DNA of 64,000 nt. Source: a virus. The stretch's first letter is position 1. Each line of letters starts with the position of its first letter. The notes under the pieces are model-generated. The model worked only from the letters and a program-made list of their open reading frames with translations, made no database searches and was not told the DNA's origin. The translations under genes were made by a program, and so were the position numbers. This document shows positions 4,108-64,000 of the stretch, one piece after another. The stretch spans positions 45,537 through 109,536 of IMG/VR virus record IMGVR_UViG_3300045988_177049; one strand, 5' to 3'.

Positions 4108-5985
4108 ATGCCCATCCTCTTGGAAAGCATTGATACCGCAGCCGCTCAGATCAATACCGTTGCTGAGGCGGGTAAAGCCCGCACGATCAAGGCTGTCACT
4201 CCCAAATTCTTCTCGTCCTCTCTGACCGGCCAGGGCAAGAAGCAAGGCGTGCTGAACTCTTCCGTTGTCCCCGGTTTCTACCCTATGGGTCTGAGCCGTG
4301 CAACGATGGGAAGCACCGACATTCGCTATAAGGAACGTCGCACTTCGAACAACGTCACCAGCCACATTATCCCCATCGGCACTGTCGTTCGACGCGCCTA
4401 TGAGCAGGGATACGGCTATATGAAGGTTCCCGTCCCCTCTGAGGCGAACGCATTCTCCGTGCGCTTGACGAGCGATACCGACGACTTCGATATCTACGCA
4501 TCCTGCCACGTACAGGGCCTCGTCATGCGCGAGGATCGTAGCGGACGAGAAATGGTCAAGGACCTTGCCGTCTCGTACCGCACGATGCTCTACGTCGTTC
4601 CGCCCGTAAAGGACGAAGACGTTGACGACCTGGAAGCTCAGATGGACACTCTGTGCGACCAGGATCTCGCCTCTTGCGACATCGATGATCCAGACTTCAT
4701 CGACGCAAGCGACGAGGACATCATGGCTTTGGACGATGAGTCTGTCGATTCACTCGTCCTGAGCGTAGACGATGACTACCGCACTCGTGCCACCCTGCTG
4801 AACATGTCGGCGTCCAACTTCCGCAACCTCTCGTATCGCATGAGTGTCGAAGGCCAAGCCTGGGCCATTGTTGACTGGAGCTATGCTCCCGTCGAAGATT
4901 CCATCGACCTACCGTGGAACGACATCCTGTGCGCCGTAGGTATCGATCCTTCGCGCCAGAACGAGTTCCGTGACACTCTGAATCAGTTCTACGCTGATTA
5001 CAGCGTCTACGAGAACATTACGTACAGTGCGCAGCGGTGGACCAGCAATGGTATCGCTGAGGACATCCGAGACGTTGTTGCCGCTCTTGTACCCAAGACC
5101 CGCACCTACAACGACGATCAGTTGGCTCAGATGGTCTACCAGCTTCGCTACATGGAGCAGTACAGCGTTCCACTGCCTGCCTACCGCGAAGTCTACACGG
5201 CCATCAACACACTCTGTGACCCTCAGACTGCATCGCGTCTGATGAAGCAGAACATGAACCTGCTGATGAACGAGACCTTGCACGAGCTGGGATCTCACCG
5301 CGACGAACTGGAGCGTGCACCTCAGTCGATGGCAACCACTCCGATCCAAGGCCAGCTCTCACCTCAGCAGAAGGCCGCTGTGTGCTCGACTGAGCCTCTC
5401 TCCATCACTCAGGCAGGAGCGGGCGCTGGTAAGAGCACGGTGATCCTTGCTCGTATCAACCAGCTCACGCTGTGCGGGGTCAACCCCTCGGACATCACTG
5501 TGCTGTCGTTTACGAACGCGGCGGCGGACAACATCATCAAAAAGAACCCCAACGTTCGCTCGATGACCATTGCCCGCATGATCCATGATCTCTACATGAC
5601 CTACTTCCCCACCCACGAACTCAGCTCTGTTGAAACGATCGCGAACTCTCTGGGTATCTACATGCCCGGAGACGCTTTCGCGCTTCAATTCTCTCAGCGT
5701 CTTCGTCGGTTGGAAGGTCGTGATGCACAAGGTGCCTACACCTCGCTGAACAACTTCATCGAGGCACACCTTGAGCAAACCGTTGACGCTCTGAACCTCA
5801 TTAAGCAAACGTCCTTGGAACTAGAGATCATCCTCGCGTACCAGACGATTGATCGGATGCCGCTGCCTTCGGGTCTGAACATCCGCCACCTCATCATCGA
5901 CGAGGTACAGGACAACTCCGTCTTTGAGTTCATCTACCTGCTCCGCCTTGTGAGCAAGCTCAAGGCATCACTTTTCATCGTGGGT
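4108..5985 (+). CDS. UvrD/Rep-family SF1 helicase, exon 1 (N-terminal extension, Walker A, motif II)
   Basis: Start chosen at ATG 4108 with RBS gaaaggaagg. Walker A is AGAGAGKST and motif II is HLIIDEVQD. The frame then ends ...SLFIVG exactly where motif III should continue. The exon ends on T at 5985. Confidence 0.65.
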
Positions 5986-7046
5986 AAGCATTGCTCACGT
6001 TAAACCCTACTAATTGCGGGAAACTCATGTTTTCGCGATAACGACCGCGACTATTGAGAAACCAATAGTGCAGCAGATGAGATAACGCTCATCGGATGGT
6101 AACACCGTTATCGTCAATGACAATCCGCAGCCAGCCACCCCAACGTCAAGCCGTGGGTGGAAGGTTCATCGACTATCGAACGCGCTGACACATTATCAGC
6201 AATAAGCCATGAGTAATCCCATGGCGAAGCAAGTAGAGTAGCGACCACACACGCATCATGTGGTACGCGAAATGATGGGCATGTTTGGTATACTCTACCT
6301 AACATGAAGATATAGTCAACCAATTCACGAAACGAGGAAACTGATGCTGTCCTCACCTGACATCAACAGACGACATTCGCTCAACACATACTTTTTCGAC
6401 ACCATCCATAATGAAGCACAAGCTTATTGGCTTGGTTTCTTATGGGCTGATGGATCATGGTCGAAAACCGCTCCACGGTGCAGTGGCCCCAACAGGCTCA
6501 CTCTTAGCCAGAAGCTCTCAGAGATTGATCATCTCCAATTGTTTCTAAACACCCTTGAAGCGGATTACCCCATTCGACGTGTTAACAACGGATACGGACT
6601 AGCCGTCGCCGTACACATTAACAGTCGACCTTTGTGCGTAAGCCTCGAACAATTAGGTTTTGCGCGTAAAGACCAACGTGTTCATATTCCACCGATACCA
6701 TCGCATTTACTACATCACTTTGTTCGTGGATACTTTGATGGGGATGGATGTCTATCTGTCTATCAACAGACAGTTGGTAATGCCGTCATCAATAAGCAGG
6801 AATGGTCCCTCACTGGACACCCCAAATTCATCGCAAACATTCGTCAGCTTATTGAGCAAAACGTTGATGTCTCTCAACGAGTGAAGATCAAGACTTATAA
6901 ACGTACCGATAAAGCTGTCACTTTACGGTACGGCAAAAAGTCCGATATCTCCGCTCTCTATGATTACTTGTACCAAGATGCCACCGTGTATCTTGACTCA
7001 AAGTATCAACGATTCGTAGAGTTCTTCACTCGTGAGAAGAACTAGG
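5986..7046 (+). mobile_element. candidate group I intron (1061 nt) interrupting the helicase between the VG and D of motif III; carries a LAGLIDADG homing endonuclease ORF
   Basis: The upstream exon ends ...LFIVG (ggT) and the downstream frame resumes DASQTLYEFRSANP, which is motif III VGDxxQxIYxFRxA. The last 5' exon base is U and the last intron base is G, as group I splicing requires. The intron is much more AT-rich than the flanks. The three ORF pieces are in different frames, so this is not an intein. Splicing restores a ~1037-aa helicase. Confidence 0.55.
6344..7045 (+). CDS. LAGLIDADG homing endonuclease (double-motif, 233 aa), intron-encoded
   Basis: Two LAGLIDADG-type motifs are present, WLGFLWADGSW and VRGYFDGDGCLSV. 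The ORF is AT-rich and lies inside the non-coding gap between the two helicase exons. RBS gaggaaactg precedes the ATG. Confidence 0.8.
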   Translation: MLSSPDINRRHSLNTYFFDTIHNEAQAYWLGFLWADGSWSKTAPRCSGPNRLTLSQKLSEIDHLQLFLNTLEADYPIRRVNNGYGLAVAVHINSRPLCVSLEQLGFARKDQRVHIPPIPSHLLHHFVRGYFDGDGCLSVYQQTVGNAVINKQEWSLTGHPKFIANIRQLIEQNVDVSQRVKIKTYKRTDKAVTLRYGKKSDISALYDYLYQDATVYLDSKYQRFVEFFTREKN

Positions 7047-8282
7047 GATGCTTCCCAGACGCTCTACGAGTTCCGTTCGGCAAACCCGAAGGCCCTGAAT
7101 GCTCTTGAGGCATCGGGTGTCTTCACCCCCTACAAGCTGGAGACCAACTATCGGTCGAACCAAGAGGTTCTGGACATGGCTAATGTTCACCTTTTGTCCG
7201 AGATCGAAGCCAACCAGCTTGCACAGATCCGCCTTCGTGCAAACTCGCTTGTTCCTGTGACCGCGCAGTCGTTCCAAGACAAGGTTCATGTCGTCCATGA
7301 GCACTACACCTCTGATGCCAAGTTCATTGGCGACCTGCCTAAGCTGCTCTCTCAGCACACCTACACCTATGTTCAGGACTGCCTGAGCCGTGGTGAACAG
7401 GTGGCGTTCTTGGCCTTTACCCGCCGAGAAGCGTTCGCTGTCCAAAAGCGCTTGGAAGAGATGTTCCCAGGCCGTTCCGTCATCTCGATGATCTCGGACA
7501 GGCGTCGCGCGTCGACGTTCTTCTCGGCCTTCATCAAGATGTACTGGTCTGACATCGAGGCCGTGGATCCCGCAAACGCCGCATACGTGTTTGCAAAGGA
7601 AATCATTGCACGAGGCCCCGCCAGCAATGCCCAGGCTCAACAAGCCTTGGCAAAGATGGCGAGCGAGTGGTGGACTGAATCGGGTTCGGCCATCCAGGGA
7701 TGGATCTACGAGTACCAATCCGCCATCATCACCAAGGAGACCTTCTTCGATCGCTTGAAGAAGTGCATCCTTGATTACGAAATCCGGTACAACTCGATTC
7801 GCGATGCTCTCATGCACCGCAACAACGAGGAACGCAAGATTCGTAACCTGGAAACCAACGCTGATCTCATTGTCTCCACTGTTCATGGAGTCAAGGGTCT
7901 TGAATTTGACAACGTTGTTGTCATCTACAAGGATCAGTCCGACATGAGCGAAGAAAAGAAGAGGCTCTATTACGTCGCGTTCACGCGCGCGAAGAACTCT
8001 CTGTTCGTTCTTTCTCATGGCACCACGTTGTCCGCGCGAATCCTCAGCGACTACAACCTCATCGTTGACTCGCTGACCCAGCCCGGTTCTACAGACAATG
8101 AGGACGAGGATACCGCCACCACTGTTACAGTGGTAAACGAAGATGATGTCCCCAGCGAGGAAGATACTCCTTGCTCGGATGCCACCGATACCGATGGCTT
8201 TGCTGCTACACGTGCTCTCGTCGCCAGCATCCAGACCGACCTTCCAGGTCTGTCTGCAACTGACGATGAGGACGACGCGTAG
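7047..8282 (+). CDS. UvrD/Rep-family helicase, exon 2 (motifs III to VI, acidic C-terminus)
   Basis: The frame begins DASQTLYEFRSANPKAL (motif III) and motif VI is VSTVHGVKGLEFDNVVV. It lies in a different frame from exon 1, consistent with splicing rather than an intein. Confidence 0.65.
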   Translation, partial: DASQTLYEFRSANPKALNALEASGVFTPYKLETNYRSNQEVLDMANVHLLSEIEANQLAQIRLRANSLVPVTAQSFQDKVHVVHEHYTSDAKFIGDLPKLLSQHTYTYVQDCLSRGEQVAFLAFTRREAFAVQKRLEEMFPGRSVISMISDRRRASTFFSAFIKMYWSDIEAVDPANAAYVFAKEIIARGPASNAQAQQALAKMASEWWTESGSAIQGWIYEYQSAIITKETFFDRLKKCILDYEIRYNSIRDALMHRNNEERKIRNLETNADLIVSTVHGVKGLEFDNVVVIYKDQSDMSEEKKRLYYVAFTRAKNSLFVLSHGTTLSARILSDYNLIVDSLTQPGSTDNEDEDTATTVTVVNEDDVPSEEDTPCSDATDTDGFAATRALVASIQTDLPGLSATDDEDDA

Positions 8283-8299
8283 TCATCGTCTGTAAAATT

Positions 8300-8337
8300 G
8301 CCCCATGACTCCTGCCTCGTCGTAGGAGTCATGGGGC
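8300..8337 (+). terminator. 14-bp perfect-stem hairpin downstream of the helicase, rho-independent terminator candidate
   Basis: The arms gccccatgactcct and aggagtcatggggc flank a 10-nt loop. A ctctttttttg run follows about 25 nt downstream. Confidence 0.45.
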
Positions 8338-8387
8338 ACCAACACCACAAAGCTCTATACTACTCTCTTTTTTTGAAAGGAGCACTC

Positions 8388-9095
8388 ATGCAAGACATTC
8401 GCCGAGGCGACATCTGGTTCATTCAACCCGCACCTGTCCCAGGAGGCGGAACTGTCGGCAACGAGATGTGGTCAGGAAGGCCGGGCGTCATCGTCAGTAA
8501 CGACACCTTGAACCAACACTCTGGTGTTGTTCAGGTCGTTTACCTTACGTCAAGCGACAAGCGACGCGCGTCTGCTACACACGTGGTCGTTCATGTGAAC
8601 AACCAACGTTCCATCGCCATCTGTAACCAAGTGACGAACATTGATACATCTCGTCTGACCCAATACATCGGACGTGTATCATCTCTTGATCTCTACAACA
8701 TCCAAAACAGCATCGCCTTCGCTCTTGGTTTAGGTGGAGCTAAACCGGGTGAAGCTCTGCATAAATGGGAAAAGCAACTATCAGCTCATGGGATTGATCT
8801 GTTCGAGCAAGAACTCAGTCTCAACGACGATATTAACTACTCTGAGCGCATCGAAGGTTTGAAGAAAACTATTCTCCAAATCGCACGTGAGCGTGACGCC
8901 CTCGCAACAGCGATCCGAGCGCACAGCGAGCACTCGTCGATGTATCAAGAGCTAAATAAAGTTTTTGGTACACCATCGACGCCGCCAATTCAACCTACCC
9001 AGAAAAAGACCAAAAAGAAAAAGAAGAAGGTGCCAAATGGAACCCACACCCACACAGCTCAGGTACATCAAAAGAAACGCCAGAAAAGCCGCTAG
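8388..9095 (+). CDS. MazF/PemK-family toxin-domain protein with a ~115-aa Lys-rich C-terminal extension
   Basis: Start at ATG 8388 after RBS gaaaggag. The N-terminus RGDIWFIQPAPVPGGGTVGNEMWSGRPGVIVSNDTLNQHSGVVQVVYLTS matches the PemK/MazF fold signature RGDIxxxDxxPxxGxExxxxRPxLVVSN. The C-terminal half is unrelated and ends KKTKKKKKK. Confidence 0.6.
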   Translation: MQDIRRGDIWFIQPAPVPGGGTVGNEMWSGRPGVIVSNDTLNQHSGVVQVVYLTSSDKRRASATHVVVHVNNQRSIAICNQVTNIDTSRLTQYIGRVSSLDLYNIQNSIAFALGLGGAKPGEALHKWEKQLSAHGIDLFEQELSLNDDINYSERIEGLKKTILQIARERDALATAIRAHSEHSSMYQELNKVFGTPSTPPIQPTQKKTKKKKKKVPNGTHTHTAQVHQKKRQKSR

Positions 9096-9537
9096 AGACG
9101 TTCTTGCCGCATATGCTGAGCGTTCTCGTATCCCTGTCAAACCTATCGCCATTGCTCGATCAATGGGACTGAGGGTTTTAGAAGCCCCTCTGCCCGGCTA
9201 CGCCTGGGGAATGATCCTCGGTAACCTCGATGGGACGGCACACATCTATTTCGACGAGAATCTCCCACCTGTGCGTGCTCGCTATGCGTGTGCGCACGAG
9301 CTTGGTCATTACGTTGCAAACAACTGTACTCTCGAACCATGTATGGGATATCAATGCGGCAGTGACGAACATCAAGACATGGCTGAAATCTATGCCGACA
9401 CCTTTGCCAAGGAACTGCTTCTTCCCCATCCTGAGATCGACGTATGTATTGAAGATGGACTGAGCATCTTTGAGATCGCACGTACATTTGAAGTACCTGT
9501 TGGTCTCATTACGTATTCGAAGAAGCAAAAACAGTGA
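9037..9537 (+). CDS. ImmA/IrrE-family (COG2856) zinc metallopeptidase
   Basis: HEXXH motif ACAHELGHYV sits in the ImmA-like context. Start chosen at ATG 9037 (MEPTPTQ). It overlaps the 3' end of the MazF-like ORF in the +1 frame across an A-rich tract. Confidence 0.65.
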   Translation: MEPTPTQLRYIKRNARKAARDVLAAYAERSRIPVKPIAIARSMGLRVLEAPLPGYAWGMILGNLDGTAHIYFDENLPPVRARYACAHELGHYVANNCTLEPCMGYQCGSDEHQDMAEIYADTFAKELLLPHPEIDVCIEDGLSIFEIARTFEVPVGLITYSKKQKQ

Positions 9538-9543
9538 AAGGCG

Positions 9544-9834
9544 GTGACCACAATGGCCTCGATTTTTGATGTATCGAAGTATATTCTGGCGCATTTTGAC
9601 CAGCCGATCTCCCCACGCAAGCTCCAAAAGCTGACTTACCTTTCGCAAGGCTGGTCCCTGGCTCTAACGGATAAACCTATCTTCCCTGAAGATTTTGAAG
9701 CATGGAAGCATGGACCCATTAATCGTGAGCTATTCAACGCTCTTCAAGGAATTCATTCCATCGATGGAACGGATGGATCGTCAACACCGTCACCAGACCG
9801 AGCCAAAAGCTTTGGTCTCAGAAACAACGAGTAA
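9544..9834 (+). CDS. Panacea (DUF4065, SocA/PanA-like) domain protein, short or C-terminally truncated (96 aa)
   Basis: KLQKLTYLSQGWSLALTDKPIFPEDFEAWKHGPI matches the Panacea core KLxKLxYxAQxxxLxxxGxPLFxExFxAWxxGPV. The same core occurs in ORF 61276..61731. The C-terminal part of the domain is missing. The start may be the ATG at 9553. Confidence 0.55.
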   Translation: MTTMASIFDVSKYILAHFDQPISPRKLQKLTYLSQGWSLALTDKPIFPEDFEAWKHGPINRELFNALQGIHSIDGTDGSSTPSPDRAKSFGLRNNE

Positions 9835-9848
9835 AGAGGACTCATACT

Positions 9849-10310
9849 ATGCGTATTCGAAACGGTATAGTTACCACGCTCCATGCGTACAGCACTGATA
9901 GTGAGTTCACTAACGTGCTTAAAGGTCGTTACATCACCAATGTGATCAACAATAACGTCATCGTCCTTGACAATGACGTGCATCTTCACATCCAAATTAA
10001 CACTTCCCATACGTTCATTCAGTACATCAACGTTTGGGGTAAGCCTGATGCACGCATCAGATCCGCTTACCTTGAACCTGATGATGAAACAACAGTGAGC
10101 CTTACTTCGTCTTCGCTCGAAACTCTACAGACGTACACATTATTCGTCGACATCAACGGTGTAGAATATCCAGTCTTCAAGATCGTTCAAAACAACGAAT
10201 TGTACACGCCGGATATCTTTACAATCACCGCTTATGCCAATCAAGACGTTTATGTGGAAGCATATGTGGATCGTTACTTACGCGGAGCACAATTTCCATA
10301 TCCTTCGTAA
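9849..10310 (+). CDS. hypothetical protein (153 aa), AT-rich, immediately downstream of the Panacea gene
   Basis: RBS aagagga precedes the ATG. No motif recognised. Its position is what a PanA-associated toxin would occupy. Confidence 0.4.
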   Translation: MRIRNGIVTTLHAYSTDSEFTNVLKGRYITNVINNNVIVLDNDVHLHIQINTSHTFIQYINVWGKPDARIRSAYLEPDDETTVSLTSSSLETLQTYTLFVDINGVEYPVFKIVQNNELYTPDIFTITAYANQDVYVEAYVDRYLRGAQFPYPS

Positions 10311-10342
10311 ACACTTTAATCACGAAAGGCTAAGAACACATC

Positions 10343-11098
10343 ATGTATAGTTCCAACATCGCTGCATGGGTTGTTAACACACTCACTGTAGCAATAGTAG
10401 TGGGAATAGCCGCACCCCTTCTCTCTATTTACACATATGGACCCCACAATTCTGGTCGCATCACACGTATCTGTATATATGTCATGTCCATTACCATCAT
10501 CGGTGCAACCGGCGTATACGGTTATTCCTATGCTCGCTTAGACATTGTGACAAACACTTTGATCACGCAAGATTCCAATAGACCTGTCCAAGTTGAATGG
10601 AACAATAATCTTGGACACGCCACGTATCATCCAACCGATGCTTTAGGTCGAGCAACCGGGGCGGGCGTACATTTCAACGCATGTACGCCTGTGCGAACCC
10701 AGCAAGATGAACCTGTGAATGCTGTTGGTTTGCCTCATAGCGATGAGTGGGTCAGCGCCCCTCTCATCTCATCCCAACTATGGGCTTCAACCAACGCATC
10801 GAACATCGTTCCAATGACAAAAGAGACCCAGAGTTCACTGTATAACGTCATTGAATACGATGCTCTCAAAAGATTCATGAGCAACGCAGGAGGAAATCAC
10901 CCTTTCCCACTGGATGTATGTGCTCATAAATCATTTGATTTCACATACACCATCATCCCGGTATATGAAGGTGACGAACTGATTCCGCGAGAGTTCATCA
11001 TCGACATGTTCGCATCAGATGGATATGCCAAGCACCTCGTTGTATCCAACGGTGTGCCCGGAAAAACCATTGACTATCGCACCGGAGCTATCAACTAG
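10343..11098 (+). CDS. membrane-anchored protein, divergent paralog of the EndA-like nuclease at 62137..62892 and apparently lacking the catalytic RGH motif
   Basis: N-terminal transmembrane helix. Shares TDALGRATGAG against LDSLGRPTCAYG, VYEGDELIPREF against NYNGNELIPRTV, and TIDYRTGAI against TIDYNTAEI with the other 251-aa protein. The two are the same length. Confidence 0.5.
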   Translation: MYSSNIAAWVVNTLTVAIVVGIAAPLLSIYTYGPHNSGRITRICIYVMSITIIGATGVYGYSYARLDIVTNTLITQDSNRPVQVEWNNNLGHATYHPTDALGRATGAGVHFNACTPVRTQQDEPVNAVGLPHSDEWVSAPLISSQLWASTNASNIVPMTKETQSSLYNVIEYDALKRFMSNAGGNHPFPLDVCAHKSFDFTYTIIPVYEGDELIPREFIIDMFASDGYAKHLVVSNGVPGKTIDYRTGAIN

Positions 11099-11133
11099 GC
11101 GCATTTCTACTATTCATCGAAAGGATATTCACC

Positions 11134-11835
11134 ATGGCTAACATTTCTTACGCAGAAGGTGTCATCATCTTCAAAGCACCCAACGAAGCAGCACTTGACG
11201 CGGTTGTCGAAGTCTTTAACACCGCCAGCCACTTCGGTTATGACACCACGTTCAACCCCGACGACATCCAAGTCTCATTAGGCGACAATGGTGACATTGT
11301 TGGTGTCGTGCCCTTCTACGGCTCAGGTCGCTGGACATACGCCACCAATGCTGAGCGTATGATCCCCTGGATCAACGAAAATCTCGACTCTATCGACAAG
11401 GACACTCTCGACGCTGTGACAAACGCCTGGTTCAACGTCACGCTCACCTGGCGCGAGTACGAGTTCGGCCAGAGCTTCGTGGCAAGTGGCTGCGCCTATT
11501 ACCACAAGCACGAGGGCCGAGATTTCGACACCACCACAACGGTTATTGGTGATGAGTCATCCGATGATCTCTCCGTTTCCTCAATGGAAGACTACGGCTT
11601 CGACGCCACGTTCTACACAGATTTCAGCCGCATGGGTATCGAGAACTTCATCAATTACTTCTCGTGGAACGACCCAGATGCAATCGGTGACCTAGCCGAT
11701 TACTCCATTGAGCAGCTCGCAGACGCCATGCGCGGTCACGAGCACGACGTGTTCGCTTCATTGGAGTACCTGAGCGAGGACGAAGAAGGTATCAAGGACT
11801 ACCGCGAGCGTATTCTCAGTCGAGTGCGCCAGTAA
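11134..11835 (+). CDS. hypothetical acidic protein (233 aa)
   Basis: RBS gaaaggat precedes the ATG. It follows the membrane nuclease-like gene. No motif recognised. Confidence 0.4.
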   Translation: MANISYAEGVIIFKAPNEAALDAVVEVFNTASHFGYDTTFNPDDIQVSLGDNGDIVGVVPFYGSGRWTYATNAERMIPWINENLDSIDKDTLDAVTNAWFNVTLTWREYEFGQSFVASGCAYYHKHEGRDFDTTTTVIGDESSDDLSVSSMEDYGFDATFYTDFSRMGIENFINYFSWNDPDAIGDLADYSIEQLADAMRGHEHDVFASLEYLSEDEEGIKDYRERILSRVRQ

Positions 11836-11850
11836 CCGCACCTATCACAC

Positions 11851-11896
11851 AAAAACAATACCCCGAGCACGGTCATGTGCCCGGGGTATTGTTTTT
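11851..11896. terminator. bidirectional rho-independent terminator between convergent genes
   Basis: The 15-bp arms aaaaacaataccccg and cggggtattgttttt form a perfect inverted repeat. A-tracts and T-tracts lie on both sides, so it works on either strand. Confidence 0.6.
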
Positions 11897-11907
11897 GCCG
11901 TATGACT

Positions 11908-17131: not shown

Positions 17132-20100
17132 TCACAGCTCGAAGCCATCGTCCTCACTCTCGACAGCAACAGGCGCTGGCACCCGGTACTGAGCTGTCGT
17201 ACTTCTGCTCACATGTGCCGTGCCCGTCTTCGAGCGAACAGGAACAGCCCATGACGTCGACTTGCGTCGTCCGATGGTTTCCTCTACCTCAACGCGAGCC
17301 ACAGTGTCGTCCATCGCGATGACAGGAGCCTCGACTTGCGTCTCCACATCAGCCTGGAGCACCTCTCGCACGCGAGCAGGAGCAAAGCTCTCGTTCCACT
17401 TTCCTTCGAACAAACCGGCTCGCTCATGAGCCAACGTCTGCATCGTCGTGAAATCCCCACCGTACGCCAGGCGATCCATCGGTGAGGCCAACTTTTCGAT
17501 GACCTTCTCATCTTCCAAGTTGAGCATGATGCCGTTGCTATCACTGAGAGCCGTGGCAACCTTCTCGATGTTCTCAGCGTTCACGGTAACGCCCAAACCG
17601 TCGTCACCATAGAACCGAGAGAACGCCTCAACCCACTGCTCCTTCGTCGCTTGAACCGGCTTGTGATCAGCATCCAGAACAGTGTTCCACACGCCATCGT
17701 TTCCCTGAGCGATCATCTGTCCGCGCCACAAACTTCGAGCAGGCCCCATGAGCAGCTCATAACGATGACGTGCATCTACCGGATCATGCTTGGCCTGCAA
17801 AATGCTCTGGGTCACCGGGTAGGTCAACTCCAAAACAGCTTTCAGTTCCTCGTTACGCAGCGCTCGAACGCCGCGCTGAGAGAAGGTTCCAGCAACCCCT
17901 GTACCAAACGATTTCACAGCCGTTGCGTACATGGTACCCTTCTGATCATCGCGCGTGACCTGAGTGGTCGTCAGATCCACATGTGTCTCAGGGTCATATC
18001 CGATGTACTTGGCGTAATCAAGCATCTTCTTGGGCGAACCCTTTGCTCCAGTCTCGATACATGCCTTCTCAACAGAAGCCATGTGCTCGTGAACCGACCC
18101 AAAGGAAAGCACAGCTTCACCATACTGATGACGCAGTGCATCGTGATACATCCGTGATGCAGCAGCGCTCACCTCACGGCTCGTCTCCAAGAACCGCTCA
18201 CGACTAGACTCACCTTCGACGAAATCGTAGTATGCGTTGTTTGCCATCTGGTGAACCTCAGCCATATCTTCCGCATAAAGCGAGTCATAGTGCTGAGACA
18301 CCTTCACGTCCAGCGCATCATGCATCGCCAGAGGGTAGCAACCCTCGTCATCCATGCCTTGACCCAAATCAAGGAGATTCGCCTCAACACTCAGCCTCTC
18401 CATGGCTTGCTCGTGAGCAGCCCCGTGACCCAGGTTGACGACTGCCACCGAGTCACCATCAAAGTCGCCATCGAAACACTTGACCATGTTCGGATTCACG
18501 CTCACACCCGTGAGACGCTCGTCAATGCTCACTCGCATGTAACGAACGCCCGCATCACGGAGCACGGGATCACGCCAGATCAAAGCGTAGTCACCATCAC
18601 GTAAGCGCAGTTTTTTCGCCAGCTCTGGACCAACACCAACTTGATCAATATCAAGCCTGGGGTCCCCTGTCCACACAGCGGTTGCCGAGCGTGGCAAACG
18701 AGAAGCCATCAAGCCTTCCTTGACGACGTTATGTTTACCCGTAAAACGGCGGCGCATGATGTCCTGGGCAATACCGTCGTAAGCCGTCTGTGCGCGGTGC
18801 ATAGCCTCAGCCATCGTTTGACGAGCATCGGCCAAGTCCTTACCCGTCAGCTCACCCGAGGCAGCGCGGTCAGCCGCGTGCTTGTAACGCAGCGCCCACT
18901 CACGGATCGTCAAATAGCGATACGTGTAGTCATGGACCGTTGACGACCCATCATCCAGGTCTTGACCCGAGCGCAAGTGCGAACTCAGCACCGGCACACG
19001 CCACGTGGTATCCGTTGCGTGTAGGGTGCGCTCCCCCGTTGGCATCGTCAATGGGAATGGAATCTCCATATCACCACCAGCGTCACCAATGAGCGCAGCA
19101 AAATCACTCCGAACCTTGCGCACGTCAAACGACCCGCGTTCGGTCACAGGAACCTCACCCATCTCGATGAGACGGCGCGCACCACCAACAGCAAGATCGT
19201 CATGGCCCTCACGCAGCGTCCCATCGGGTTCGATGTCAAGACCGCACACCAGAGCCATCTCACGAAGCTGAGCGAGAGCTTGCAGATTACCACCGTAGAT
19301 CTGCTCCAGCACCTTGTCGCATCCCTGAGACTGCAACGCCCAAGCAAGCTGAGACGAGGCTTTACGTCCCTGACCAGCACGAATAGCAGCGTCATCGTAT
19401 GCAGCAGTCTTTGCATCAACCGTCATATGGGTACCAATGAAGGACACCTGACCGATACCGTTTTCAACAACCTCGCCGTTTGGCAGGTACAACGGAGCGG
19501 TACTCTGCATCGCTTCACGAGCGCTACCACCGTTGAAACGAGACACCGCGCTAAAGGGTGCCATCACGACGTCCAGATCCGGGTTTTGCCTAAACAGATC
19601 CATCATGTCAGTCGATCCATACAGATCTTCGATCTCCGAAGACGTCAATGAGGCATCACGGTCAACAATGAGTGAAATGACACCCTTGTTGCCGTGCATG
19701 TCGGAAATCTTGTCGCCGACAATGAGATCACGCATCTCGCCATCGGTTCCACGAACGCGATATGTACGCGCGAAATCAGCCGAAACAACGATGGAGTCTT
19801 CCATCGTCCATCCACCAGCCGTCATAAACGCCGTGCCCACAGGCTTCGTCACAGACGAGGCATTCATGAGATTCGATGTTGTCATCTGTTGACGATCGAA
19901 AGGATCATAGCTCATGAACTCAGCTTGTTTCGTCAGCATGAGCGGAGCACGATCACCCTTGTCTGAGGGAACAATCGACCCATCGACGTTCACCTGAGCA
20001 CCAGAAACCAGATAACGAGTCACGCCTTGGTTGACACCGCTCGATGTCATGATCGGATCAAAGTAGCCATCGGCTTCCTCACTGAGCAACGACATATTAC

Positions 20101-22585
20101 GACCGCCCGTGAGCACCCACGGATCCATCGTCGTGTCGTTGGCGGGATCGCCGCTAAAACCCTGTTCCCGTGCGCGAGATGCACGGAAATCCGCATCAAT
20201 GGTTGATCCATCACGCAGTGCATTCGGATAGCGCACGCGGCGCGCTTCGGTGGCAAGAATTGCATCGAGAATCTCTCGATCCATACCCTCTTCAAGGGCA
20301 CGCTCATAGTGATCTGCTCGATGGCGCGTATCAGTCAGCCTACGATACACACCGTTAAGGGAGGCAGGCTCACCGACGCGAGACCGGCCTGTGAGCACGT
20401 CAGCTTGAACCCGATAGCGAATCGCATCACTCATCTGCTGTTCGTAACCGATCAGCCGAGTGCGCTCTTCGAGAGACTTCTTTTCTCCGGGTTTTTGACT
20501 GACGACGCGCGCCTCAAAGCCTGGCACGATCATGAGATCGTTACCGGAGTTGAAACGAGTGATGATCTCTCCATTCTCACCGCGAGCGAAGATCTGTCCG
20601 ATCGTTCCGCTCACAGGCTCTTCTCGACCTGTTTGGGAACGCATGATTGAGCCGGTCCACTCCACGACACCGTTTGCATCGACGCGGATCGATCCAGGAG
20701 TAACCGCGCACGATTCAAGCGTGTCTGACACGACTTGAAGCATCGATGTGGTGAACTCATCGTCCACAACGTCCATTGACAACGCCGTGGACTCGTCGAA
20801 AGTGATCAATCGATCCCTAAATGCGTTGGAATAGAAAGATTCTCCAACGATCTTTTCCTTCGGCAAACGCGCGGTACGCATTGCAGCCACAAGATCATCG
20901 TTGTTACGCCACTGACCGTATTCACTGGTCATGTAACGAGCAGTACGCACGGGATCAAAGACAAACTCATCCGACTCAATCGGTGCATCCACACCGATTT
21001 GAGTATCGAGTAGATCACGCAGGTGCGCACGAACGCGCTCTTCTGGACTTCCCGTGTAAGCCACAGAACCGGCCAACATGTCGTGAACACCAGACAGATC
21101 GCTGTCTTGGTCCATCTCATCGAGCAACCCTGTTGCTTCGGCGTACTCAGACCTAGTTGCATCAGGCTTGAGCAATGTGGTCTCTGCTCCGCGCAGAACG
21201 TCCCAATACGCGCGCCCAACGGCTGCAAGATCAGGATCGCCAGACAACACAGGAACATACGTCCCCTCGCGTGCAGCGTCTTCATGCTCGCTGAGCTGAC
21301 GGATCAAACCGTCAACATCGAGCTGCTGCTCCACATTGATGCGAGCACTACGAACAGCATCGGTGATAAACGTCGATGCCTGGGTTCGACCTTCGGGCGT
21401 ATCAACGAAGAACCGAGACGAGGCAGAACGCTCCTTCATCTGACGACGGATGACCACCTGCTCACCGTTTGCTCCCGGCATGTCCTTATACGCACTCGTG
21501 AGCGTGTCTGTGGACAAATACGACTCTTGAAGCGTCTTATTCTTGCTCTGACGCTGACCAACGTGGCCGACAAGACCTTTACCGTCCTTGCGCTCCACGG
21601 GGCGTCCCAAGGCGACGCGCACAAGGTCGCACACCTCATCAACAGTGGGTGTGTACGCCACCTGCTTGTTATCTCGACGAGCAGTCGTGGAGAAGTACAG
21701 CGTTGCACCGTTGTCATAGACACGACCCACCCACTGCTCTTTGTCTCGGGTATCGGTCAGACGCACCGTCATATTCGTTCCCGTGAGTCGAGCACGAATC
21801 TGACCGGGACGCAAGTCCTTTTCAATCGTGTAGGGAATACCTTCTTCGGCCAACATATCGAGCACAGCTCGGGAGCGAGCAAGTGCGTCGGTACTCATGA
21901 ACTGACGGGCGTTATAGCGTCCCGTCTCAGGGTTACGTGCACCATCAAGTACCCACTGACGAACATCGTTGTACTCAGCCGTCGTCATGCGACCCATGAG
22001 TTCAGTCAGGCCCGAGATATCATCGAGGCTGAGTGCCCGGCCTGCTTCTTTCGCATCGCCGTCTTCGTTCAGACGATAGAGCTTGAGTTCCGAGGATGTG
22101 ACCTTTTCCAGACTACTCGGCTTGCCATCGGCAAATGCAGCAATGTCATCATCGAGAATATACAAAATCGATGAACCAGCTTGCTTGACGCTTCGGCGGG
22201 TTCCCCACCGAGGATCATAAGGAGAGATCGGCAAACGAGGTCCAGCAGCTCCTGTAGATCCGCTCAGACCAATCGTCGCCGTAAAGTCTTTGTACAACGC
22301 CTTGTAGCCCTTACTTGATGTATCGGCAGGCTGGAACAAGGCTTTGTATCCTGGGACGTTCTCACTCATGACGCTTTGAATAGCGTCGAGTGCTTCGGGG
22401 ACGCCTAAGTCCCCATCGTTAAACGAACGTCCATTTTCATTAAGCTTGGCTTCCATGAGATCTCGCAAGTGCCGACCCTGTGAAACCAGGATCGGAGAAC
22501 CAATCAACTCACTCGTTCGATTGATCGTACGGGCGATCATGTACTCATACATGTACCGACGCAAACCAGCATTACGCGTTTGCAT
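17132..22585 (-). CDS. single-polypeptide two-barrel RNA polymerase-like protein (1817 aa) carrying both the beta-subunit and beta-prime-subunit catalytic motifs of multisubunit RNAPs
   Basis: LIVGDKISDMHGNKGVISLIV matches the beta DPBB signature GDKxAGRHGNKGVVS. About 350 aa downstream, VKCFDGDFDGDSVAVVNL matches the beta-prime Mg-binding NADFDGD signature. RBS aaggag precedes the start. The C-terminal tail ...VAVESEDDGFEL resembles those of the two downstream paralogs. Confidence 0.7.
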   Translation of the reverse strand: MQTRNAGLRRYMYEYMIARTINRTSELIGSPILVSQGRHLRDLMEAKLNENGRSFNDGDLGVPEALDAIQSVMSENVPGYKALFQPADTSSKGYKALYKDFTATIGLSGSTGAAGPRLPISPYDPRWGTRRSVKQAGSSILYILDDDIAAFADGKPSSLEKVTSSELKLYRLNEDGDAKEAGRALSLDDISGLTELMGRMTTAEYNDVRQWVLDGARNPETGRYNARQFMSTDALARSRAVLDMLAEEGIPYTIEKDLRPGQIRARLTGTNMTVRLTDTRDKEQWVGRVYDNGATLYFSTTARRDNKQVAYTPTVDEVCDLVRVALGRPVERKDGKGLVGHVGQRQSKNKTLQESYLSTDTLTSAYKDMPGANGEQVVIRRQMKERSASSRFFVDTPEGRTQASTFITDAVRSARINVEQQLDVDGLIRQLSEHEDAAREGTYVPVLSGDPDLAAVGRAYWDVLRGAETTLLKPDATRSEYAEATGLLDEMDQDSDLSGVHDMLAGSVAYTGSPEERVRAHLRDLLDTQIGVDAPIESDEFVFDPVRTARYMTSEYGQWRNNDDLVAAMRTARLPKEKIVGESFYSNAFRDRLITFDESTALSMDVVDDEFTTSMLQVVSDTLESCAVTPGSIRVDANGVVEWTGSIMRSQTGREEPVSGTIGQIFARGENGEIITRFNSGNDLMIVPGFEARVVSQKPGEKKSLEERTRLIGYEQQMSDAIRYRVQADVLTGRSRVGEPASLNGVYRRLTDTRHRADHYERALEEGMDREILDAILATEARRVRYPNALRDGSTIDADFRASRAREQGFSGDPANDTTMDPWVLTGGRNMSLLSEEADGYFDPIMTSSGVNQGVTRYLVSGAQVNVDGSIVPSDKGDRAPLMLTKQAEFMSYDPFDRQQMTTSNLMNASSVTKPVGTAFMTAGGWTMEDSIVVSADFARTYRVRGTDGEMRDLIVGDKISDMHGNKGVISLIVDRDASLTSSEIEDLYGSTDMMDLFRQNPDLDVVMAPFSAVSRFNGGSAREAMQSTAPLYLPNGEVVENGIGQVSFIGTHMTVDAKTAAYDDAAIRAGQGRKASSQLAWALQSQGCDKVLEQIYGGNLQALAQLREMALVCGLDIEPDGTLREGHDDLAVGGARRLIEMGEVPVTERGSFDVRKVRSDFAALIGDAGGDMEIPFPLTMPTGERTLHATDTTWRVPVLSSHLRSGQDLDDGSSTVHDYTYRYLTIREWALRYKHAADRAASGELTGKDLADARQTMAEAMHRAQTAYDGIAQDIMRRRFTGKHNVVKEGLMASRLPRSATAVWTGDPRLDIDQVGVGPELAKKLRLRDGDYALIWRDPVLRDAGVRYMRVSIDERLTGVSVNPNMVKCFDGDFDGDSVAVVNLGHGAAHEQAMERLSVEANLLDLGQGMDDEGCYPLAMHDALDVKVSQHYDSLYAEDMAEVHQMANNAYYDFVEGESSRERFLETSREVSAAASRMYHDALRHQYGEAVLSFGSVHEHMASVEKACIETGAKGSPKKMLDYAKYIGYDPETHVDLTTTQVTRDDQKGTMYATAVKSFGTGVAGTFSQRGVRALRNEELKAVLELTYPVTQSILQAKHDPVDARHRYELLMGPARSLWRGQMIAQGNDGVWNTVLDADHKPVQATKEQWVEAFSRFYGDDGLGVTVNAENIEKVATALSDSNGIMLNLEDEKVIEKLASPMDRLAYGGDFTTMQTLAHERAGLFEGKWNESFAPARVREVLQADVETQVEAPVIAMDDTVARVEVEETIGRRKSTSWAVPVRSKTGTAHVSRSTTAQYRVPAPVAVESEDDGFEL

Positions 22586-24213: not shown

Positions 24214-24306
24214 TACCTCACACAGGGCGCGAGTAGCGGCGGTTCGTATGACACATGTTGTGCGAGCCGCCGCTTCCTTTTGCACCACACCGACAAAGGA
24301 GTAACC

Positions 24307-24828
24307 ATGGCTTCCAATACCGTTCTGGCCGAACAACACCACTACAAACGACACATGCCCTCGGTTGCGACAGTCGTCAAGTACTGGCGTACACATCCCC
24401 AACTATGGATGAAAGGCGTAGTTATTGGTTGGAACATTCCGTTTTGTTTCGCGTGCGGCTGGATCCCGCCTGTGAAGATTCACAACGGTTTCAAATGGAA
24501 GGGCGCGAGCCGTTTTCTTGAACGTGCTCACCTGCAAAATCATTGCGTGCGCGGAAACGATAAACCATCGAACATCGTCCTTCTATGCCCACTATGCCAC
24601 AGTGCAATGCCACGGTTTCAATCACGCAAAGAAGCGCTGCACTGGGTATCCAAACAGTACTCTTACCGTATGCGAACCACCAGCACAGCGCTCCATGATG
24701 CCTCTTGGCAGCTCTACACCAACACGCACCCGTGTTGTGATCAAGACGATATCCGCGAGCTGTACAGACTGTTTTTGATCAGCGTCATGCTTCAGGCTCA
24801 AGAGGTGGCACACCTAATGCATCCATAA
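24307..24828 (+). CDS. HNH (His-Me finger) endonuclease
   Basis: RBS aaggag precedes ATG 24307. The segment ERAHLQNHCVRGNDKPSNIVLLCPLCH matches the H-N-H pattern with its Cys pairs. Confidence 0.55.
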   Translation: MASNTVLAEQHHYKRHMPSVATVVKYWRTHPQLWMKGVVIGWNIPFCFACGWIPPVKIHNGFKWKGASRFLERAHLQNHCVRGNDKPSNIVLLCPLCHSAMPRFQSRKEALHWVSKQYSYRMRTTSTALHDASWQLYTNTHPCCDQDDIRELYRLFLISVMLQAQEVAHLMHP

Positions 24829-25699: not shown

Positions 25700-27484
25700 A
25701 TGCCACGAAAACCTTCCCAAACCCTTGAACAATTCAGCTCCGCCCTGGCTGATCAGCTTGTTGATCAATCCCTACGATCCATTGCTCGTGGATCAGACAC
25801 AAGAGTCCAATGGCGCTGTCCCATTGACCCTCGCCATATATGGTGGGCAAGCCCAATGAACCGCACTAATGCGAAAAATCCAACCGGATGCAGCGTATGT
25901 AACGGCAAGACTGTCATCCCCGGTGTCAATGACGTCGCCACAACCCATCCCGACGTGGCTGCTCTCATGGTTGATCAAAGCCTCACCACGAAGCTCACCG
26001 GCTCTTCTAATAAGAGAGTCGAGTTCTGGTGTGGTAATCCCGCACACAACCACTGGGTTGCACCGCTCAGTAACGTCGCGCGCCAAGGAACGCGCTGCCC
26101 TCAGTGCTCAGGTCGTAAACCCGTTTCAGGCCAGAGCGATCTAGCGACCACTCATCCCGACCTAGTTTCCGAACTTGTTGATCAGTCTCTCGCTACCACC
26201 CTCAAAGCAGGGTCAAACACCTCTGTGCTCTGGCAATGCTCGGTGAATCCCGATCACACGTGGAAGGCAACGCCATACTCACGTACAACTAAAAAGACCG
26301 GGTGCCCGTATTGCTCAGGTAGGATCATCGTCCCTGGTGTCAATGATCTTGCAACCACACACCCCGATCTGGCTATACAGCTCGTGGATCAGTCCTTAGC
26401 GACAGCCACGAGCAAGGGTGGGACTACACCTGTGCTTTGGCAGTGCCAAGTCAACCCGGAGCACACATGGCTCGCAGCCCCAAGTAACCGTGTGAAGCCC
26501 TCGGGATGCCCCATGTGCTACAGGCTTCATACCAACCCATCTCAAACACTTTTAACCGAGATGATCCGCTCTCTTGTTCCCACGAGCACAGTCCTCGGTG
26601 ACGACCATACGATTCTCCCCTCGGGTAAAGAACTTGATATCGTCGTGCCTGACCACCGTCTCGCCATCGAGTTCAACGGTGTGTTCTGGCACTCTGAGGC
26701 CGCATCTGTCGAAACGCACTGCAAGCCCCATCCTCACGGCTATCACGCTGAGAAAACACGTGAAGCACGCGAGCAGGGCTACCAACTCGTTCACGTGTGG
26801 GAGGATGACTGGGTGCATCGACACGAGCTTGTTATGCGCGCTCTTGCTCATAAGCTACACGCGACAGACCGCCTGCCGGAGATTCTGCCAGACATCAACC
26901 CGCTGGCCTATGAGCGTCTCTACGCGCGCAGCCTCACAGTGAAAACTGTTCCTGGTGATGTTGCAAGACGTTTCTGGCAAGACAACCATCTCCAAGGCCC
27001 GGTGAACTGCTCTGTCAACATCGGTCTCTATGATCAAAACCATGTTTTACGCGCTCTGCTCGGTGTGGGGCGCAAGAACCATGGTTCACGTGTCTCGCTG
27101 CCAGATGGAACCTGGGATATCCAGCGCTACGCAACACTAGGCATTGTCGTTGGTGGCTTCACCCGTCTCCTTGCCCACGCTGAGACACTTCTGCCCGTCC
27201 ACGCGTGGACGTCATGGAGCGACAACGACATCTCTGATGGTGGGATGTACCAAGCAGCAGGCTTCACCCCGGATAAGCGTCAAGGAGCGAGCTACAGCTA
27301 CGTCGGACGCACAACCAGGTGGGAACGTGTTCATCGCTCCACGTACACGAAGCAGCGTTTCATTGACGATCCTGATCTCGTCTACGAGCCTGGTCAAACT
27401 GAGCACGAGGCGGCTTTAGCTAATAGGCTCTACCGCATCTACGACGCAGGTAAGACCCGGTGGATCAAACACGTGGAACGCTAG
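25700..27484 (+). CDS. protein with four tandem zinc-ribbon modules followed by a Vsr/DUF559-like PD-(D/E)xK endonuclease domain (homing-endonuclease-like)
   Basis: The unit WxCxxxPxHxWxAxxxxRxxxxxGCPxCxGxxxxxGxNDLATTHP is repeated four times. After it, ELDIVVPDHRLAIEFNGVFWHS is typical of Vsr-like restriction-endonuclease-fold nucleases. Confidence 0.55.
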   Translation: MPRKPSQTLEQFSSALADQLVDQSLRSIARGSDTRVQWRCPIDPRHIWWASPMNRTNAKNPTGCSVCNGKTVIPGVNDVATTHPDVAALMVDQSLTTKLTGSSNKRVEFWCGNPAHNHWVAPLSNVARQGTRCPQCSGRKPVSGQSDLATTHPDLVSELVDQSLATTLKAGSNTSVLWQCSVNPDHTWKATPYSRTTKKTGCPYCSGRIIVPGVNDLATTHPDLAIQLVDQSLATATSKGGTTPVLWQCQVNPEHTWLAAPSNRVKPSGCPMCYRLHTNPSQTLLTEMIRSLVPTSTVLGDDHTILPSGKELDIVVPDHRLAIEFNGVFWHSEAASVETHCKPHPHGYHAEKTREAREQGYQLVHVWEDDWVHRHELVMRALAHKLHATDRLPEILPDINPLAYERLYARSLTVKTVPGDVARRFWQDNHLQGPVNCSVNIGLYDQNHVLRALLGVGRKNHGSRVSLPDGTWDIQRYATLGIVVGGFTRLLAHAETLLPVHAWTSWSDNDISDGGMYQAAGFTPDKRQGASYSYVGRTTRWERVHRSTYTKQRFIDDPDLVYEPGQTEHEAALANRLYRIYDAGKTRWIKHVER

Positions 27485-57069: not shown

Positions 57070-57118
57070 AAATCCTCCTAATCGTCGAAAACGTTCGTAT
57101 ACGAATATAACAAGTATA

Positions 57119-63516: not shown

Positions 63517-63603
63517 TCCCTCGTGGCGAAACAGGCAGACGCGTCTGATTCAAAATCAGATGTCCACAAGGACGTGTGGGTTCAACTCCCACCGAGGGAA
63601 CCA
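63517..63603 (+). tRNA. tRNA-Leu (anticodon CAA), type II with a long variable arm, CCA encoded
   Basis: The acceptor strands tccctcg / cgaggga are perfectly complementary, followed by a discriminator A and CCA. D-arm gcgaaacaggcagacgc. Anticodon stem tctga / tcaga with loop ttCAAaa. Variable arm gtccacaaggac. T-arm gtggg-ttcaact-cccac. The overall layout parallels E. coli tRNA-Leu(CAA). Confidence 0.75.
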
Positions 63604-63926
63604 CCCAGCGGTTGGATAATGCTGGATGAATAGAAGAGGGATAGCTACCCTCTCCTGCCATTGAACTTTCCTTGCCTCGGTTCCATGGCTAGACCAACCG
63701 CCGTGATCGGGGGATCACGTATGGGGTCGCACCCCAGACGAGCACATAATTTAATATAGTGTGTGTTTCTGTCGGCTCGCCAAACAGCATCCCCCACCAC
63801 AAACCACCTCTCCCAGAGGTAGCGGAACGCTGATGGAATCACCTTCCTCAACGTAGACCGCATCCGGTGTGCTCTTTGTTCTATTAACAGAGGTAATCTG
63901 AGAACAAAGGGCACACCCGCCAGCAA

Positions 63927-63999: not shown

Positions 64000-64000
64000 C

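Follow-up and report, generated by a model that had tools for sequence, protein, structure and literature searches.

A probable mobile group I intron with a LAGLIDADG endonuclease gene inside motif III of a UvrD-like helicase gene

The subject of this study is a stretch of DNA of 64,000 nucleotides (nt) from IMG/VR virus record IMGVR_UViG_3300045988_177049 (positions 45,537 to 109,536; the whole stretch is called the window from here on), in which the gene of a UvrD-like superfamily 1 (SF1) helicase is interrupted by an insert of 1,061 nt (5986..7046, + strand). It is very probable that this insert is a mobile group I intron located within motif III of the helicase, and that the loop of its P9 helix holds a gene for a LAGLIDADG homing endonuclease. 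What is observed here is the anatomy of the insertion, the RNA pairings and their covariation among related introns, the fold of the encoded protein and the constraint acting on it, and the presence of three allelic states at the same site.

The helicase gene and the anatomy of the insertion

Exon 1 of the helicase gene (4108..5985, + strand) was delimited from Pfam matches, the gene calls in relatives and its colinearity with uninterrupted homologues, and exon 2 (7047..8282, + strand, through the stop codon) from Pfam and full-length homologue matches. The exon 1 reading frame ends ...SLFIVG, with GGT at 5983-5985 as its last codon and U5985 as its last base. Beyond this point the helicase frame reaches a stop six codons inside the insert (TAA at 6001..6003, + strand), directly past the P1 hairpin described below, i.e. 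an in-frame UAA for ribosomes leaving exon 1. Exon 2 begins at 7047 with DASQTLYEFRSANP. The insert itself, which ends in G7046, was assigned through the Rfam family Intron_gpI, and its boundaries follow from intron-less alleles and from the P1 and P10 pairings; its G+C content is 45.9%, compared to 55.2% and 54.3% for the two exons. The three coding pieces (exon 1, the endonuclease open reading frame (ORF) and exon 2) start at positions equal to 1, 2 and 0 modulo 3, and therefore lie in three different frames. As the start of the helicase, ATG 4108 is likelier than TTG 4060 (the start in the ORF list), because the gene calls in related contigs are of 630-633 amino acids (aa).

Joining 5985 to 7047 gives ...FIVGDASQTLYEFRSA, in which the SF1 motif III (VGDxxQxxYxFRxA) is whole in one chain; the predicted full helicase has ~1,037 aa. 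The domains are divided over the two exons, with Pfam UvrD-helicase (4.5e-13) and AAA_19 (9.3e-13) in exon 1 and UvrD_C (1.6e-16) and UvrD_C_2 (1.6e-12) in exon 2. The spliced product is colinear, without gaps, with an uninterrupted homologue (P0001, the closest one, 86% identity) reading ...SLFIVGDCSQTLYEFRSANP, and the DNA of this uninterrupted allele likewise aligns over the junction without a gap. Compared with 5.8 billion proteins, the joined product finds hundreds of uninterrupted helicases of 918-975 aa at 100% query cover, mostly from Actinomycetota, next to C-terminal fragments of 367-437 aa (84-99% identity) that represent the same split gene elsewhere. Intact reading frames are seen in both exons, with a ratio of nonsynonymous to synonymous substitution rates (dN/dS) of ~0.04-0.08 that indicates purifying selection.

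A preceding sequence-only reading of this DNA had ended the ...SLFIVG frame at the ggT codon of 5985, followed it with 1,061 nt of AT-rich insert holding a double-motif LAGLIDADG ORF at 6344..7045, and seen motif III rebuilt at the junction, a U at the end of the exon and a G at the end of the insert. All of this is correct to the base; the ORF has 233 intact codons and matches Pfam LAGLIDADG_3, and the motif rebuilt at U5985 and 7047 is free of gaps relative to the uninterrupted homologues. Its argument that three frames leave no room for an intein also holds, and there are stops between the pieces as well.

Group I core and splice-site pairings

The Rfam covariance model Intron_gpI (RF00028) matches 5965-6339 over the full model length with 47.1 bits when reported by E-value (1.5e-10 if just the region is searched; 7.3e-9, far outside chance, if both strands of the 64-kb window are), which places a full-length core directly past the 5' splice site that the sequence-only reading had proposed. 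Two relatives without the ORF score 47.6 and 48.9 bits. The conserved core strings AAUUGCGGGAAA, AAUCCGCAGCC, GGUUCA..GACUA and AAGAUAUAGUC are all present in the RF00028 alignment. On the basis of the Rfam consensus alignment, RNAalifold and pair counts, the catalytic core extends over 6004..6317 (+ strand, as do all pairings given here) and consists of the P3 5' strand (6005-6011), P4 (6015-6020 with 6124-6129), P5 (6025-6028 with 6117-6120) with an extended P5a/b/c (6035-6114), P6 (6130-6165), P7 (6171-6175 with 6313-6317), the hairpins P7.1 (6185-6199) and P7.2 (6206-6225), a third, extra hairpin before P8 (6241-6268), and P8 (6280-6306), with AAGAUAUAGUC as J8/7. The architecture is probably IA-like, with two covarying hairpins (P7.1 and P7.2) following P7, an assignment that is complicated by the third hairpin and by an ambiguous P3.

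When the helices from P1 to P9 are folded, as the sequence-only reading had suggested, P1 and P10 fit the exact splice sites and P3 is ambiguous. In P1 (5979..5999, 7/7 pairs) the exon sequence CGUGGGU (5979-5985) pairs with the guide GCUCACG (5993-5999), such that the U5985-G5993 wobble marks the splice site; a wobble of this type is found in all 21 relatives. The P1 drawn by the covariance model itself is poor, and the P1 given here suits the proposed splice site better. The 7-nt P1 loop, AAGCAUU (5986-5992), constitutes the 5' strand of P10 and is fully complementary to GAUGCUU (7047..7053, 7/7 pairs), the first seven bases of exon 2. A further helix joins UCACGA (6325..6330) to UCGUGA (7030..7035, within the last part of the endonuclease ORF). 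Since it begins 7 nt past P7 and stops 11 nt short of the 3' splice site, it is taken to be P9. This long-range P9 loops out the entire endonuclease ORF, with the whole catalytic core on its 5' side.

RNAalifold additionally pairs 5972-5976 (UUUUC or UCUUU, upstream of P1) with GAAGA at 7036-7040, within the intron's 3' tail (columns 2-6 and 433-437 of the alignment). Only one-sided changes are found in this pairing, which may be due to chance or may be a contact that helps to bring the splice sites together. A terminal hairpin GUUCUUC/GAAGAAC (7021-7042) was dropped: its outer pair is broken in five sequences and its loop holds the covarying P9 strand.

Covariation among related introns

Covariation was assessed in an alignment of 21 distinct introns together with 15 nt of each exon, the interior of the ORF being cut from the long introns. 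Following RNAalifold prediction, pairs were counted on a curated structure, with the pseudoknots of P7 and P10 included. In this structure 98.6% of the cells can form a pair, compared to 32-45% when the partners are slid by 1-3 columns, and two-sided changes are found in 15 pairs, versus 0-3 in the slid controls.

Compensatory changes back P1, each of P5a, P5b, P5c, P7.1, P7.2, the extra hairpin and P8, and also P9. The closing pair of P1 (5979:5999) is C-G in 11, U-G in 7 and U-A in 3 introns, and therefore a synonymous third codon position in the exon changes together with the guide in the intron. In P9 (UCACG[A/G]/[U/C]CGUGA), 14 introns have A-U at 6330:7030 and the other 7 have G-C, so that the pair is broken in none. 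The P10 pairs are invariant among close relatives.

A number of points weigh against a group I intron here. The score of 47.1 bits is 3 bits below the curated gathering score of 50 for RF00028, and at the gathering threshold Rfam reports just two tRNAs in the window and no intron; the missing bits were probably lost on the long insertions relative to the model, i.e. ~90 nt in P5 and ~110 nt after P7. In a shuffle control none of 500 replicates reaches the observed values, which overstates the significance because the sequences are related, so that the slid control is the fairer one. P4, P6 and P7 never vary and are uninformative either way. Finally, P3 can be paired in two ways: the covariance model has CCC (6005-6007) with GGG (6277-6279) and adjoining mismatches, while RNAalifold pairs 6004-6011 with AGUAGAGU (6232-6239). 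All candidate P3 positions are invariant, even in distant clades, and covariation therefore cannot decide between the two. A split P3 from which the extra hairpin branches off would fit both, the two 3' segments being complementary to adjacent parts of CCCUACU, but this is only a hypothesis.

The LAGLIDADG endonuclease

The ORF in the P9 loop (6344..7045, + strand) encodes 233 aa and was assigned as a monomeric, double-motif LAGLIDADG homing endonuclease from Pfam, PHROG, AlphaFold2 and Foldseek. The two motifs are LGFLWADG (with D36) and RGYFDGDG (with D134), and both aspartates are at the catalytic positions and invariant in 46 homologues. Pfam LAGLIDADG_3 is matched with 30.2 bits (cut-off 22.5) and the PHROG 4645 endonuclease family at 1e-42. 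In the AlphaFold2 model, built with the 46 homologues (mean predicted local distance difference test 94.4, predicted template modelling score 0.91), an alpha-beta-beta-alpha-beta-beta-alpha unit occurs twice, and it is thus confidently predicted that the protein has the LAGLIDADG homing endonuclease fold. The top Foldseek matches, with probability 1.0, are I-AniI, I-Tsp061I, the bI3 maturase and the I-OnuI family; of the 121 PDB matches at E <= 0.001, all 50 that were listed are LAGLIDADG enzymes or maturases. A search of the PDB with the sequence gave chance-level matches only. Pairwise dN/dS among the seven endonuclease copies is 0.07-0.18, i.e. the protein is under purifying selection.

Translation could start at AUG 6344, which is preceded by a Shine-Dalgarno-like GAGGA at 6334-6338 (together 6334..6346, + strand). 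At the other end, the final codons (FTREKN*) overlap and encode the 3' strand of P9, which makes this a clear case of coding and RNA-structure constraint acting on the same bases. The GAGGA can pair locally with UCCUC (6350-6354) or over a long range with UUCUU (7022-7026); the long-range option is fully pairable among the relatives and has no two-sided changes. A local hairpin that would hide the ribosome-binding site appears in centroid folds and was rejected, being no stabler than shuffled sequence (z of -0.6 for the ORF-bearing introns). The candidate cleavage target, taken from the intron-less allele L016, is TTCATCGTGGGG|GATGCTTCCCAG; a candidate target sequence of the L016 type reads TTCATCGTGGGGGATGCTTCCCAG. 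The analysis thereby yields an uncharacterised 233-aa LAGLIDADG enzyme together with a defined candidate target.

Allelic states and mobility

About 30 related loci were collected through contig look-ups and a scan of IMG/VR, and the site occurs in three states. At 7 loci there is no intron and the glycine codon is GGG in all cases, not GGT; at 14 loci an intron of 416-425 nt without ORF is present; and at 7 loci (including the window) the intron has 1,060-1,062 nt with the 233-codon ORF. The ORF-less introns retain all sequence up to the start codon as well as the last ~35 nt. The intron-less alleles are colinear at the junction, with 77-95% exon nucleotide identity. By flanking exon DNA, the loci fall into two host clades with at least 93% versus ~77% identity to the window, and all three states are present in both, which on these sequences indicates ongoing gain and loss in related replicons. 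A series of close replicon relatives that covers every state of the homing cycle could serve to measure the rates of gain and loss.

Position -1 tracks the presence of the intron, being G in 7/7 intron-less alleles and T in all intron-bearing ones, which would fit co-conversion of a base that is needed for splicing. Ligated exons would read CTTTTCATCGTGGGTGATGCTTCCCAGACG, where intron-less DNA has GGG instead. A 26-mer of the ligated exons is absent from the metagenome and viral contig collections, and no allele with precise intron loss and a retained T at -1 was found in metagenome or viral contigs. The ligated-exon sequence is usable as a marker of spliced RNA, because no DNA allele seen contains CTTTTCATCGTGGGTGATGCTTCCCAGACG.

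For the same pairs, the synonymous substitution rate (dS) is lower in the endonuclease than in the flanking exons, by a factor of about two to six. Within the close clade, dS is 0.05 for the endonuclease versus 0.32 for the exons in one pair and 0.13 versus 0.25 in another; between the clades it is 0.58-0.70 versus 1.26-1.68, where values above ~1 are near saturation, which weakens the argument. The contrast would fit transfer of the intron between lineages after their divergence. The intron core is 90-95% identical between host clades whose exons are ~77% identical, a conservation that could in part reflect constraint on the RNA structure instead of transfer. Both of these reservations weaken the case for transfer.

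One further ORF-less intron of the family (L004, 2106-2514 and upstream) has lost the P3 5' strand and J3/4 through a deletion of 13 nt, and a frameshift divides exon 1 of the same locus into two ORFs. The copy looks to be in decay, unless the assembly is in error here. Nucleotide searches with the gene and the intron core against a phage collection gave no match, and neither did a nucleotide search of 25 kb against plasmids. A generic P4/P6 pattern was tried on viral contigs and discarded as too unspecific, since it matched all kinds of group I introns, including those on giant-virus contigs. A 16-mer of the intron, searched in genome and viral contigs, gave mostly chance matches (hundreds are estimated in 596 Gb) and identified no host; its matches included a few contigs of metagenome-assembled genomes with inconsistent taxonomy.

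Proposed mechanism and alternative explanations

From the above, a splicing and homing cycle can be proposed, with the caveat that we infer splicing, DNA cleavage and the direction of transfer. Transcription of the helicase gene would run through the intron, and ribosomes translating exon 1 would halt at the UAA of 6001-6003. The end of exon 1 and the 5' end of the intron would form P1 with its U5985-G5993 wobble, the core from P3 to P8 (6004-6317) would fold, and P9 (6325-6330/7030-7035) would loop out the ~700-nt ORF and carry the 3' end to the core. An external guanosine would then attack past U5985, after which P10 (5986-5992/7047-7053) would align exon 2 and the terminal G7046 would fill the G site. 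Exon ligation would produce GUG GGU GAU GCU, restoring ...FIVGDASQTLYEFRSA. The endonuclease, translated from AUG 6344, would cut intron-less alleles (…GTGGGG|GATGC…) in co-resident replicons, and repair off the intron-bearing copy would insert the intron along with the flanking G-to-T change at -1. Over time the ORF, and later the intron, would be lost again.

It could be argued that the LAGLIDADG protein is mainly a maturase and that the patchy distribution of the intron results from vertical descent and losses only. The best structural matches do include the bI3 maturase and I-AniI (a bifunctional endonuclease/maturase), and purifying selection is expected under either role. We nevertheless consider this unlikely. 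In 14 lineages a conserved, covarying intron is retained without the ORF, so the ribozyme appears to be independent of a protein encoded in cis. Pure maturases commonly lose the catalytic aspartates (as in bI3), whereas here both aspartates at the catalytic positions are invariant, and the dS of the endonuclease, far below that of the flanking exons, fits transfer between lineages. The endonuclease and maturase roles are not mutually exclusive.

Another possibility is that the copy in the window is a decaying relic that splices poorly or not at all, in which case the helicase would be a pseudogene or consist of two polypeptides. The Rfam score is slightly below gathering, three pairs of the window copy are weaker than in the family consensus (an A-C each in the P5b tip and P7.2, and a U-U in P8), and decay does exist in the family, as in L004 with its P3 deletion and frameshifted exon 1. 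In addition, GTG 7032 could start a C-terminal fragment, while the exon 1 piece would end at the stop at 6003. This explanation is very unlikely all the same: the exons are intact and under the purifying selection described above, P1, P10, P7 and P9 of the window copy are perfect and the weakened pairs are all in peripheral hairpins, and the near-identical introns of L008 and L012 have the same architecture. SF1 helicases require motifs I-VI in one chain, and the halves of motif III on separate exons would not work apart.

That there is no group I ribozyme at all is practically negligible as an explanation, whether the disruption is put down to a homing endonuclease gene that stands free, to an intein or group II intron, or to a frameshift in sequencing. 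An endonuclease ORF inside a gene and nothing further would speak for it, whereas the covariance model and the covariation reveal a group I core, ORF-less versions of the insert exist, an intein is incompatible with three frames and intervening stops, a reverse-transcriptase ORF and any group II match in Rfam are lacking, and independent assemblies hold the same 1,060-1,062-nt insert. The alternative named by the sequence-only reading, i.e. a helicase pseudogene disrupted by a free-standing endonuclease gene, is contradicted by the 14 ORF-less lineages, by the intact exons and by the exon-intron covariation in P1 and P10. Its preferred interpretation, a group I intron, is supported by the Rfam core, P1 and P10, the compensatory changes and the intron-less alleles.

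The same site in more distant replicons

Homologues of the endonuclease with 51-59% identity are also found inside UvrD-like helicase genes of more distant replicons. Two of these, L152 (3536-4707) and L153 (3541-4711), have inserts of 1,171-1,172 nt at the same IVG|D site in motif III, preceded by IVG with a U, ending in G and followed by the D. P1 is retained, with GCCCACG and GCCCACA as guides. P10 of L152 is a different pairing of 9 bp (GGCAUAAUU with GAUUGUGCC), and L153 likewise has a 9-bp P10 of its own; each matches the differing exon 2 sequence that follows. P9 helices of 7 and 9 bp are present at the same position with an unrelated sequence. Set against this, Rfam finds no intron in L152 or L153 at E <= 0.01, and their assignment as introns was made by reading the sequence directly. 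Because Rfam misses them, annotation pipelines would call such genes split. One of the distant introns is located on a 201-kb contig of an NCBI metagenome assembly.

The host replicon

Judging from its genes, the replicon looks like a conjugative or mobilisable plasmid, not a phage. The window encodes a TraG/VirD4-type coupling protein (27588-31628, - strand), a MobL relaxase (38805-41129, - strand; 2.4e-63), a topoisomerase III-like protein (54856-57132, - strand), a lysozyme-domain protein (44456-46351, - strand) and PemK (8298-9095, + strand), i.e. a cell-wall hydrolase domain and a PemK toxin are part of its gene content, as are two ClpB-like ATPases. Related contigs carry an HU-domain gene at the matching position and, in the region that adjoins the window (L306, L332, L354), genes for SSB, a sortase, SNF2 and MgsA-like ATPases and a dNMP kinase; an actin-like match in related contigs is weak and below the Pfam cut-off. 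Over ~94 of the ~111 kb, no gene matched a capsid, portal, terminase or tail family. In a plasmid database, helicase and relaxase have their best homologues on one shared set of three plasmids, one each from Streptomyces, Gordonia (pGKT2) and Rhodococcus, and pGKT2 has the gene order ATPase, unknown, ATPase, helicase in common with the window replicon. The host of the replicon is probably Gram-positive and perhaps actinobacterial.

Two points are at odds with a plasmid. The related contigs, of 105-126 kb, are filed as viral by IMG/VR, a label that may be wrong, and no VirB4-type ATPase was recognised in ~94 of ~111 kb. Taking everything together, it is possible, and not far from an even call, that this is an actively homing group I intron whose target is part of the backbone shared by a family of ~105-126-kb conjugative plasmids, from human- and animal-associated samples and with probably Gram-positive or actinobacterial hosts. 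If this is true, it would be conjugation, and not co-infection by phages, that unites intron-bearing and intron-less alleles for homing.

The replicon seems rich in selfish nucleases. One of the ClpB-like AAA+ ATPases (1,257 aa; 34217-37990, - strand) has a probable intein of ~370 aa in its second P-loop (insert at ~35024-36142, ...GSSGVGKL / CTDST...FIVTHN / TEVTKQ...) with a LAGLIDADG_3 domain. An extra Leu precedes the intein Cys, such that the spliced P-loop would read GKLT, not GKT. PHROG matches of this ATPase to terminase and primase were set aside as spurious, since they come from its intein. A protein of 594 aa (25700-27484, + strand) with four DUF4379 zinc-finger repeats has strong PHROG matches to homing/HNH endonucleases, a small ORF (24280-24828, + strand) has a weak HNH match, and a 747-aa protein (57119-59362, - strand) next to the topoisomerase gene has a partial match to homing endonucleases.

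Several other features of the replicon stand apart from the intron. A protein of 1,817 aa (17132-22585, - strand), conserved in related contigs, has only short matches, to RNA polymerase Rpb2 domain 6 and Rpb1 domain 2; possibly it resembles RNA polymerases of the single-chain, two-barrel kind. The window ends (63517-64000) with genes for tRNA-Leu(CAA) and tRNA-Pro(UGG), and in the related contig L306 (12301-15107) two tRNA-Gln genes lie just past these; the replicon therefore carries a small tRNA cluster. The region 3' of the helicase (8298-11900 in the window; L001-L010) is variable, with PemK-like calls ranging from 51 to 235 aa and with Peptidase_M78 and Endonuclea_NS_2 genes that come and go between relatives.

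Comparison with known systems

A close comparison is the nrdD (sunY) intron of phage T4, which also belongs to group I and also interrupts the protein-coding gene of a conserved nucleic-acid enzyme. Its core is located wholly on the 5' side and its long ORF (for I-TevIII) on the 3' side, with extra hairpins between P7 and P3', and pairings at its far 3' end reportedly return the remote 3' splice site to the core. The present intron differs from it in several respects: the endonuclease is a LAGLIDADG enzyme, whereas I-TevIII is an HNH enzyme, P2 is absent (just 5 nt lie between P1 and P3), P5 has an extension, P8 comes after a third hairpin, and the intron is in a helicase gene on a replicon that is not phage-like. 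No sequence similarity was found between the intron or gene in the window and any phage record searched.

With regard to the protein, the intron-encoded LAGLIDADG proteins of Staphylococcus (Twort/K-like), Bacillus, Alicyclobacillus and crAss-like phages are of the same family (PHROG 4645) and size. Their identity is 29-33% over >90% of the length, and the annotation of several reads intron-encoded endonuclease or mobile intron protein; unlike the present system, they are distant proteins in other host genes, with no DNA similarity. The fold is shared with I-AniI (from an Aspergillus mitochondrial cob intron), the I-OnuI family, I-Tsp061I and bI3, with query-normalised template modelling scores of 0.54-0.67. 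Enzymes of the I-AniI type are intron-encoded too, the fungal ones in group I introns and I-Tsp061I in an archaeal intron. In contrast to that group, identity is 11-15% with no sequence-level match in the PDB, the 233-aa protein is shorter than most, and it is bacterial, not organellar.

In the Bacillus cereus group, introns of group I occur in recA, nrdE, nrdF and prophage genes (Tourasse and Kolsto 2008, PMC2504315). Like the intron described here, these are inserted after a U in conserved genes of DNA metabolism, and alleles with a full endonuclease exist beside alleles that hold only the ends of the ORF (PMC2504315). Unlike those introns, which are chromosomal or in prophages, the present one is on a replicon with relaxase and coupling-protein genes, in which no phage structural genes were detected. 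Introns of this group that bear homing endonuclease genes are well known from conserved DNA-metabolism genes of phages and Bacillus chromosomes (PMC3984707; PMC2504315). The early in-frame stop is typical for bacterial and phage group I introns, and a 2014 review lists GIY-YIG, HNH, PD-(D/E)xK or EDxHD enzymes as those mostly carried by phage introns (PMC3984707).

Group I introns have been described as travelling with phages and group II introns with plasmids, with none of the former known in a standalone plasmid gene (PMC2504315, 2008; PMC3429520, 2012); these statements are 14-18 years old, and a literature search of incomplete coverage gave no later report of such a case. If the replicon is indeed a plasmid, this intron would be a counter-example to the frequently repeated rule by which phages, and not plasmids, are what group I introns of bacteria spread with, and the reason behind the rule would become approachable by experiment. 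The differences from the known systems are in the target gene and its insertion site, in the LAGLIDADG family of the enzyme and in the replicon, while the intron itself is an ordinary, textbook one.

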